Below, piece after piece: positions 1,809 through 2,903 of a stretch of DNA of 4,166 bases. The notes below the pieces were generated by a model, which saw only the letters and a program-made list of their open reading frames with translations, had not been told where the DNA came from and did not search any database. The number at the start of each line of letters is the position of its first letter. Positions within the stretch are counted from its first letter, which is position 1. Both the position numbers and the translations under genes were made by a program. Origin of the DNA: a virus (lineage: Duplodnaviria; Heunggongvirae; Uroviricota; Caudoviricetes); IMG/VR virus record IMGVR_UViG_2645727555_000033. One strand, written 5' to 3'.

Positions 1809-1931
1809 CACATCAATCATCTGAACACAGAGCTATAACCATGAAGATTGAATATACGCCAGAACGTGGGCGGGGATTCGTTCGCCCTGGTGAAACTGAA
1901 AAACAACAAAATTGGGGTTTTTCAGGCATAA

Positions 1932-2000
1932 CAAAAAGCGCCCAGTTACCTGAGCGCCTTTGTGAACGATTAACCTGCTGCACAAAAAATAAATATGAGC
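1932..2000 (-). ncRNA. Candidate small RNA of about 65-70 nt (extended -10 promoter plus intrinsic terminator)
   Basis: On the minus strand there is a perfect extended -10 element TGATATAAT (plus coordinates 2015-2007) with no good -35 box. About 45 nt downstream of the predicted start sits a GC-rich hairpin GCGCTCAG-GUAA-CUGGGCGC (plus 1957-1938, 7 of 8 stem pairs, GNRA-type loop), followed immediately by UUUUU (plus 1937-1933). No ORF with a ribosome-binding site lies between promoter and terminator. Confidence 0.3.
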
Positions 2001-2053
2001 ATTGGAATTATATCAACTGTGTGAAGAAGCGCCACAATTGCCGGATTACAGGC

Positions 2054-2080
2054 AAAAAAATGCGACCTATGATGGTCGCA
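2054..2080 (-). terminator. Rho-independent terminator of the minus-strand cassette
   Basis: On the minus strand: stem TGCGACC, loop AUCAUA, stem GGUCGCA (plus 2080-2061), followed by UUUUUUU (plus 2060-2054). It lies about 75 nt downstream of the stop of the 61-aa ORF. Confidence 0.6.
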
Positions 2081-2363: not shown

Positions 2364-2390
2364 GCGCCGTAGTTCCTCACACCACGGCGC
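2364..2390 (-). promoter_or_regulatory. Intercistronic hairpin between the 34-aa and 61-aa ORFs (possible attenuator)
   Basis: GCGCCGT, a 13-nt loop, then ACGGCGC (2364-2370 and 2384-2390). On the minus strand it is followed by AUUUCUUUAC and then the Shine-Dalgarno of the 61-aa ORF. It sits about 10 nt after the stop of the upstream 34-aa ORF. Confidence 0.3.
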
Positions 2391-2708: not shown

Positions 2709-2903
2709 ATGGTTGCCGTAAATCATATACCACACCTTGTACACACACAAACGGCCTTTGTGTGGCGTTTTCTGGCACTGAGTGCCGGAGAATCTCAAAT
2801 CATCCACGTAACCGCCTGGAGGGAACGCGAAGCGCGTAGCCGTTGCCCGTCCGGTTGTGTTGCTGTATTCGCCGCCCGTATTCGTCAGGGGGTAGGCTTA
2901 TGA
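2709..2903 (+). CDS. Hypothetical small protein (64 aa), first gene of the plus-strand operon
   Basis: ATG at 2709 with Shine-Dalgarno TAGGAG five nt upstream. Its TGA stop overlaps the next start (ATGA at 2900-2903). Codon usage looks enterobacterial. Protein: MVAVNHIPHLVHTQTAFVWRFLALSAGESQIIHVTAWREREARSRCPSGCVAVFAARIRQGVGL. The longer track ORF from 2607 has no ribosome-binding site and is rejected. Confidence 0.45.
   Translation: MVAVNHIPHLVHTQTAFVWRFLALSAGESQIIHVTAWREREARSRCPSGCVAVFAARIRQGVGL

Follow-up and report, generated by a model that had tools for sequence, protein, structure and literature searches.

The window, by which we mean the whole 4,166-nucleotide stretch of viral DNA analysed here (IMG/VR record IMGVR_UViG_2645727555_000033), is by its gene content the left end of a satellite of Escherichia coli, a phage-inducible chromosomal island (PICI) or capsid-forming PICI (cf-PICI) of the family of Sp7 in O157 Sakai, that is, EcCIEDL933. 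Its plus strand carries a tyrosine integrase gene (1-1230), then alpA (1595-1783; Pfam Phage_AlpA, E = 5.7e-17), the gene of the PICI activator, and further right an Icd-like gene (2709-2903; NCBIfam phage_ICD_like, E = 1.4e-16). On the minus strand, a gene for a ribbon-helix-helix (RHH)-like protein (2400-2579) and orf61 (2157-2342) form a leftward cassette embedded within the rightward alpA-driven unit. At the 3' end of this cassette, convergent with alpA, we find what reads as the promoter, body and intrinsic terminator of a short RNA (minus strand, 1930-2015). A conserved rightward frame that looks translatable lies downstream of alpA, and the predicted RNA is complementary throughout to the early part of it. 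This candidate small RNA (sRNA) gene and the frame that it opposes are the subject of this report.

The minus-strand unit and its conservation

The promoter is an extended -10 element, TGATATAAT, at 2007-2015 of the minus strand (the plus strand reads ATTATATCA), and direct reading confirms the perfect TGnTATAAT that the initial annotation had placed there. The sequence TGNTATAAT occurs once in the window against a chance expectation of 0.13, and at least one copy appeared in 25 of 200 shuffles, about one in eight, so that the motif alone is mildly unusual. By reading, no good -35 element accompanies it, the best being TTGTGG at 19-nt spacing; extended -10 promoters tolerate a poor -35. The predicted sRNA of about 68 nt (1933-2000, minus strand) would start at G2000, 7 nt past the -10, and end in a U-run. 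Folding, a check that had been proposed for it, gives -23.8 kcal/mol for a 70-nt minus-strand RNA (z = -4.75), which 1 of 200 shuffles equalled.

Within this RNA, the single-stranded core GUGCAGCAGGUUAAUCGUUCAC (1962-1986) is the block most conserved between two classes of relatives, P and O, and it occurs once in the window at three or fewer mismatches. It is followed by a terminator hairpin, GCGCUCAG-GUAA-CUGGGCGC (1938-1957; DNA GCGCTCAG-GTAA-CTGGGCGC), and by the U-tract UUUUUGUU (1930-1937; DNA TTTTTGTT), which reads TTTTT at 1937-1933 and then GTT. The 8-bp stem, which includes one U.G pair, the GUAA loop and the U5GUU tail together make up the stem-loop and U-run of an intrinsic terminator, as first described. 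A consensus terminator scan did not list the hairpin, presumably because its greedy stem extension, through a G.U and three A-U pairs, uses up the T-run. The scan did list an upstream terminator, T1 (2054-2080, minus strand; stem 2080-2061, T7 at 2060-2054), which ends the leftward RHH-orf61 operon. As T1 follows orf61, the -10 box has a terminator on either side, an arrangement expected of a small transcription unit of its own.

Two sets of homologues were compared, one retrieved by AlpA protein (69 loci, independent of the RNA pattern) and one by a degenerate DNA pattern of the core (about 200 loci). All 69 AlpA-retrieved loci carry the unit: 61 have the exact pattern, four class-O loci and one class-P locus have it with one substitution, and three belong to a third class, Q. 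The core pattern is present in more than 120 viral contigs and 85 metagenome contigs; among one-genome-per-species representatives it was found at a single locus, in Shigella flexneri only, and blastn of 50,697 phage records returned no homologue of the unit. Conservation of the paired motifs across these relatives shows that the pairing of promoter and terminator is not due to chance.

Each class brings a -10 box of its own. Class P keeps TGATATAAT unchanged in 56 of its 58 distinct sequences, and the spacing of -10, core and terminator gives units of equal length in 32 of 33 distinct class-P variants, the remaining one being 1 nt longer. In class O, the O157 type, the whole 5' part is replaced by unrelated sequence that offers a nearly invariant TTGCCC-N17-TATCAT, and in class Q the -10 is GCTATAAT or GCTAAAAT and the core is present in a diverged form. 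P, O and Q are three non-homologous 5' modules, each with a -10 hexamer 25-37 nt upstream of a shared 20-nt core, an arrangement that is hard to explain except by transcription initiation. This conservation exceeds the constraint in the neighbourhood, as the plus-strand frame imposes no amino-acid constraint (see below).

The terminator hairpin is found as 18 variants among 280 instances, and in the common ones the minus-strand RNA has all 8 bp of the stem without a break, at a mean of -14.9 kcal/mol. As plus-strand RNA the same sequences contain a C.A mismatch and reach -10.3 kcal/mol; with its U.G pairs, the stem is intact only when read from the minus strand. A run of T5-T7 lies past the hairpin in nearly all 280 instances, three class-Q loci having an interrupted run, such as TTTCTCTTTT. 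Compensatory changes exchange C-G and A-U at the seventh pair and lead from C-G through U-G to U-A at the fifth, and several double changes separate the two main hairpin types. The helix of T1 covaries as well, with pair 30-44 being C-G in 41 sequences and G-C in 13, and pair 27-47 being G-C in 54 and U-A in two. The covariation among homologues that had been suggested as a check is therefore present in both hairpins.

The borders of the unit are equally sharp. Five distinct downstream contexts start directly past the T-run, and such mosaic junctions mark the hairpin as the end of a functional unit; at two loci (L022 and L134) the upstream context switches about 40 nt before the -10. To judge from these junctions, the promoter-to-terminator stretch behaves as a self-contained mosaic module. 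No conserved minus-strand open reading frame (ORF) exists within it across the variants, in keeping with the earlier statement that no ORF led by a ribosome-binding site lies between promoter and terminator.

It could be argued that there is no separate RNA gene here, and that the hairpin and T-run are the final or back-up terminator, possibly bidirectional, between two convergent units, any short RNA being a by-product or a fragment of a 3' untranslated region. Class O lacks T1, hence leftward operon transcripts must end at this hairpin, which does lie where convergent units meet and where mosaic boundaries fall; with an A-run upstream and CUUUGUG downstream, the plus strand also has weak bidirectional potential. 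In class P, however, the operon already has its terminator in the covarying T1, 45 nt upstream of the -10, and both TGATATAAT and its spacing are near-invariant even though the plus-strand frame exerts no amino-acid constraint. Classes O and Q each bring -10-like hexamers of their own, and the plus-strand version of the hairpin is broken by its C.A mismatch and has no U-run. We regard a terminator without an RNA gene as unlikely, and these comparisons incline us to think that a real, independent minus-strand sRNA gene is present. What stands of the original small-RNA interpretation is a conserved, self-contained minus-strand unit with a strand-specific, covarying hairpin; the analogy to P4 and the view of the surroundings as lacking a convincing gene do not.

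Two further structures at the 5' side of the unit deserve mention. A palindrome, GTGGCG-CTT-CGCCAC (2019-2034), lies directly upstream of the -10, with TGGTC-ATTTC-GACCA as an alternative in some loci. It varies on the 3' arm only, at one plus-strand codon (A, T, K, E or V), and as an RNA helix it is unsupported, given this one-arm variation and 81% pairing; it could be an operator or a hypervariable site. A 5' hairpin of class P (CUGC...GCAG), judged by reading, is without compensatory support.

The open frame opposite the predicted RNA

Opposite the unit, the plus strand of the window holds an 82-codon ORF (1841-2089), the truncated copy of a conserved rightward open frame that resumes in another frame at 2002-2700. 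Across 153 distinct loci, one plus-strand frame through the core is free of stops over a median of 1.0-1.2 kb, and up to 2.4 kb, against a median open length of 45 nt in the other two. This frame, which we call the transit frame, passes on the opposite strand across the sRNA, T1, orf61 and the RHH gene, in many cases reaching the Icd-like gene without a change of frame. The non-genic segment, comprising hairpin, sRNA, promoter and T1, contains no stop in this frame in 60 of 65 class-P and in all 27 class-O sequences, compared with one to five stops on average in the other frames, and the T1 variants differ in length by multiples of three. Within the two minus-strand genes it is a shadow frame whose wobble positions coincide with theirs.

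Openness is conserved here, and the encoded sequence is not. Where the core and promoter vary, it is mostly at codon position 2 of the transit frame and least often at position 3, and consequently the frame does not explain the conservation of these nucleotides. The RHH protein, read from the minus strand, retains 61% identity and 76% positives, against 66% positives for the plus-strand shadow translation. In the absence of amino-acid constraint, selection apparently acts against stops and not for a protein sequence, and a frame both stop-free and sequence-indifferent predicts selection on translation as such, rather than on a product.

These same observations bear on the idea that the plus-strand ORF is an ordinary protein-coding gene, of which the promoter-like and terminator-like motifs would be coding by-products. 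In most relatives the frame is indeed open for about 1 kb; the Prokaryotic Genome Annotation Pipeline (PGAP) has annotated it, as a hypothetical protein, an Icd-like pseudogene or a BRO-N pseudogene, and in Sakai the gene ECs_1576 covers it. Against this, variable sites fall on codon positions 2 and 1 and not 3, the plus-strand translation changes radically where the RHH protein is conserved, and the hairpins covary so as to keep a pairing that, with its U.G pairs, is valid on the minus strand only. A Pfam and NCBIfam search found no family for the ORF besides its in-frame Icd-like end. An ordinary gene therefore appears very improbable. The initial annotation had held that a conserved, translated 82-aa ORF would make the promoter and terminator coincidental; the frame is conserved as open, and the motifs, given the position-2 variability and the minus-only hairpin, are not coincidental. 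To set a conserved plus-strand ORF against a real promoter and terminator is a false dichotomy. For annotation the case is a warning, as long hypothetical, Icd-like or BRO-N pseudogene calls in this region hide minus-strand genes and a probable RNA gene.

The window's copy of the frame is broken at an A7 run (2054-2060, plus strand), which is the T7 tail of T1 and is A8 in a 95%-identical relative (L001). This one-base difference splits the frame into 82 aa and 232 aa, and is either a genuine frameshift or a homopolymer sequencing error. The frame starts at ATG 1841, and its first 17-30 codons (M..YTPE.GRGFVRP) are the remnant of the N-terminus of a Rha-type antirepressor, whose gene is intact, at 266 aa, in three relatives (L277, L279 and L280); in another (L007) the frame is fused to a BRO-N domain. 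Other relatives have a BRO-N domain gene here, and the position between alpA and the sRNA thus takes changing antirepressor-like cargo, which is often deleted. The earlier view that the region has no convincing gene must be given up on two counts, the antirepressor remnant at ATG 1841 and a frame open for about 1 kb in relatives.

The distance from the frame's start to the RNA also varies. In elements of the L005 type, the frame has a Shine-Dalgarno sequence and start codon of its own (GAGG-N9-ATG) directly past alpA, and only about 10 nt separate this ATG from the sRNA 3' end. In L279, GGAGGA-N8-ATG overlaps the antirepressor stop about 20 nt from that end, and 598 codons follow to the end of the Icd-like gene.

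Possible modes of action

Gram-negative PICIs have no known global repressor, and their silencing is an acknowledged open point (PMC6092414). In EcCICFT073, AlpA activates rightward expression beyond alpA (PMC6092414), and in Pseudomonas aeruginosa AlpA is a processive antiterminator (PMC7969949, PMC9371919). We propose a model where transcription from the extended -10 (2015-2007) begins near position 2000 and yields a U-rich, unstructured RNA of about 68 nt, which would end at the intrinsic terminator at 1957-1930 and act in cis, antisense to the 5' part of the transit frame. Pairing would block ribosome loading or transit, or trigger cleavage by RNase III, and the rightward message, left untranslated, would be exposed to decay or to Rho-dependent termination. 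Leaky expression of the Icd-like and replication genes could thereby be damped until a helper phage strongly induces alpA, when the message would out-titrate the RNA; convergent transcription may add interference. This specific mechanism is possible but somewhat doubtful, and for the cis-antisense regulator as a whole, sRNA gene and mechanism combined, we see an even chance.

Several observations weigh against this model. We infer the start, the 3' end and the abundance of the RNA from its sequence, and the relatives compared are phylogenetically related, such that the counts given above overstate their independence. A cis-antisense role alone does not explain why the 20-nt core is conserved. 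Class-O elements lack T1, and any RNA made there may be no more than the tail end of the leftward operon transcript. Inside the minus-strand genes, the absence of stops from the transit frame is not significant alone (P 0.07-0.84, synonymous shuffle), and the argument from this frame accordingly rests on the non-genic segments. In the window itself the ATG of the frame lies 90 nt upstream of the 3' end of the sRNA and the frame is shifted, and the proposed target may therefore be defective there. Finally, the class-O locus of Sp7 in O157 Sakai (about 1,596,844) does not appear among the 63 orphan sRNA peaks that Tree et al. 2014 report as bound by Hfq, which argues only against strong Hfq binding under the conditions of that study.

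It is tempting to speculate further that the leftward cassette as a whole, with its RHH gene, orf61 and antisense sRNA, is an embedded immunity cassette that gates induction of the satellite through the sequence-indifferent transit frame. Rightward expression of the Icd-like and replication genes would then need unbroken translation of that frame, which the sRNA would block, laying the message open to Rho and RNases. Such a device would be the cis-antisense counterpart of the polarity switch of P1 c4, icd and ant. We think this extension rather unlikely as it stands; if true, it would revise the description of Gram-negative PICIs as transcribed rightward only and without a known repressor. The setting of the predicted RNA is unusual in any case: it lies within a leftward cassette undescribed in the PICI literature and faces a long frame in which selection seems to favour nothing but the absence of stops.

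Short antisense RNAs with comparable tasks are familiar from other mobile elements. CopA of plasmid R1 is a short, constitutive antisense RNA with an intrinsic terminator; it opposes the tap leader ORF and has a repressor protein nearby. Expression of repA downstream needs the translation of tap itself, not its product. Going by this general knowledge, the likeness lies in a short terminator-ended antisense RNA, a leader-type ORF and a small repressor nearby. CopA, however, is rich in stem-loops, whereas the window's RNA is largely unstructured and, by Rfam, without sequence or structure similarity to it. The ORF opposed here is also longer, at about 300-600 codons, and spans the whole leftward cassette; coupling and polarity, in the present case, are what we infer. 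IS10 RNA-OUT and P22 sar are likewise cis-encoded RNAs of about 70 nt, made from strong promoters in mobile elements, convergent with a gene (transposase and the antirepressor ant, respectively) and complementary to its start region. The P22 immI region adds RHH proteins (Arc and Mnt), recalling relatives of the window in which the opposed upstream gene is a Rha- or BRO-N-type antirepressor. Unlike RNA-OUT and sar, the RNA predicted here spares the start codon; from the ATG to its 3' end, which lies downstream, the distance is 90 nt in the window and 8-25 nt in certain other contexts. Rfam matches it to neither.

Lambda OOP, a 77-nt antisense RNA with a strong terminator, acts through RNase III and is convergent with cII, the gene of the key lysogeny/lysis activator, much as the present unit is convergent with alpA; the sRNA, however, lies outside the alpA coding sequence, with a gap of 150 nt in the window, narrowing to about 25 nt in elements of the L005 type. 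The immunity RNAs P1/P7 c4 and P4 CI work by translation-dependent polarity in an icd operon, and here too an Icd-like gene lies downstream. Both, however, are processing products of the strand that carries their targets, and the complementary sites on which they act are separate. The window's sRNA would be read from the other strand, some 750 nt away from where the Icd-like gene starts (2709). No complementary run of at least 8 involving the core was found in the Icd-like leader (2600-2720). The link to P4-type satellites drawn in the initial annotation is not borne out, as the element is a PICI or cf-PICI and Rfam detects no similarity to P4 CI or P1 c4.

Searches for a known family were negative throughout. 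Rfam 15 gave no match above chance in the window (E up to 10) or in three relatives (E up to 1), the best chance-level match being sau-6072 (E = 0.11, driven by the terminator), and the C4 covariance model did not match the window or these relatives. The sRNAs known from O157 and enteropathogenic E. coli islands (Esr41, the EcOnc list and the Pas sRNAs) are at other loci, and a search of the accessible literature found no published description of this sRNA, nor a report of a CP-933C sRNA or of a PICI antisense RNA or antiterminator. By analogy, the predicted sRNA resembles the classical cis-antisense RNAs of plasmids, insertion sequences and phages in function, and belongs to no described family.

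Some features would also suit an RNA that base-pairs in trans, with or without Hfq, its core or variable 5' region targeting host, helper-phage or satellite mRNAs. The architecture is typical, with an unstructured AU-rich body, a single-stranded core beside the terminator and a U-tail, and the U-tailed terminator with its adjacent AU-rich single-stranded region is a feature of Hfq-type sRNAs. A conserved single-stranded core argues for some sequence-specific partner, and the combination of a conserved 3' half with a variable 5' part is shared with the O157 prophage anti-sRNAs AgvB and AsxR, which are also short (Tree et al. 2014, PMC4104026). Those two differ from the present RNA in sequence and occupy lambdoid moron sites, and the Sp7 locus falls outside their Hfq-bound list, its absence from this Sakai Hfq-CRAC (crosslinking and analysis of cDNA) list counting against a trans role.

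Target searches speak more directly to this possibility. The 5' region commonest in class P has a 13-nt perfect complement in the kil start region of the icd helper prophage of CFT073 (AAAAAAUGGAUCA; L217, 13597-13609, minus strand), which covers the kil start codon; the window's own variant lacks the match. We estimate that about 0.05 such matches are expected by chance per query, with five queries tried, and it is a low-weight lead. A 12-nt complement to the primase start region exists for one sRNA variant only, does not covary with the sRNA variants and was rejected. Elsewhere in the window, an ungapped search found no complement to the core of at least 9 Watson-Crick pairs, and complementary 10-mers revealed no conserved target across 133 elements; in the window, these elements and the one helper prophage, the recommended search for targets of the 5' segment left only the kil match as a lead. 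When whole elements were scanned with RNAduplex, the long duplexes that resulted were non-specific and could not be reproduced from one element to the next, which makes the scan uninformative. We consider a trans-acting role quite unlikely. A type I toxin-antitoxin system was also considered and dismissed, as the window's 10-codon minus-strand ORF (MLIFIFCAAG) is absent in the other variants and the opposed plus-strand frame is long and not hydrophobic.

The cis-antisense model concerns a large group of elements. Both PICIs and cf-PICIs occur widely across E. coli, also in O157, O55, O111 and O145 pathogens, and shape phage-mediated gene transfer. Facing alpA and next to an RHH gene that had gone unrecognised, a conserved leftward sRNA offers a specific candidate for the control of PICI silencing, one that is easy to mutate.

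The island and its other features

The assignment of the element rests on its integrase-alpA left end, its DUF4222 gene, the primase, RepA and DUF927 genes in relatives and the match to Sp7. Prophage Sp7 of O157 Sakai is EcCIEDL933, the prototype cf-PICI (bioRxiv 10.1101/2022.09.08.507074), and this Sakai relative encodes capsid, portal and terminase. The features of a PICI are present, namely the integrase-alpA left end, an RgdR-like DUF4222 protein, primase or replication genes and a chromosomal site unused by prophages. Near-identical and related copies occur in about 1,500 complete E. coli genomes; the relatives adjoin roxA, tqsA, allE or tRNA-Pro, and carry primase, RepA or DUF927 genes downstream. 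In the window, small overlapping ORFs and the DUF4222 gene (Pfam) lie rightward of the Icd-like gene.

The RHH-like protein, of the YlcI/YnfO family, has a GTG start behind a GAGG Shine-Dalgarno (SD) sequence; its NCBIfam match (YlcI_YnfO_N, E = 5e-4) is below the curated cutoff, and PGAP annotates a gene of this family in five relatives (L001 and L004-L007). orf61, the second gene of the cassette, was identified from the ORF list and by reading and has an AGGAG SD sequence 7 nt 5' of its ATG. A 62-aa ORF of the orf61 type stands at the equivalent place in L002, L004, L005 and L007, a correspondence of position, as these were not aligned to the window's orf61. Between the RHH stop and the SD sequence of orf61, the terminator scan detects a 10-bp terminator-like hairpin, GCGCCGTGGT...ACTACGGCGC followed by ATTTCTTTAC (2364-2390, minus strand), and orf61 expression may therefore be attenuated.

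Seven nucleotides past the alpA stop, a hairpin without a U-run, TGGCGGC-ACACA-GCCGCCA (1790-1808), is kept in relatives with changes in loop and stem; it could be a pause, a processing site or a termination signal bypassed by AlpA. The divergent region between the RHH and Icd-like genes contains nested inverted repeats on TGTAAT/ATTACA (12-nt arms at 2605-2616 and 2620-2631, shorter ones of 6-8 nt at 2584-2602), which look like operators for the RHH protein. In some class-O elements (L008, L121, L166 and L216), the 5' part of the sRNA, CACACACACAAACGGC, repeats 14-15 nt of CACACAAACGGCCTTTGTGTG, a plus-strand hairpin within the Icd-like coding region (window 2741-2764); the match is low-complexity and CA-rich.

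Lastly, the Icd-like leader contains a terminator-like 8-bp hairpin on the minus strand, AAGCCCCG / CGGGGCTT followed by TTGCTTTTTGTG (2636-2679). A possible minus-strand -10 lies upstream of it, and its equivalent in L007 is a weak SymR-like Rfam match (E = 0.005). This hairpin may belong to a second antisense RNA, one that would oppose the start region of the Icd-like gene.

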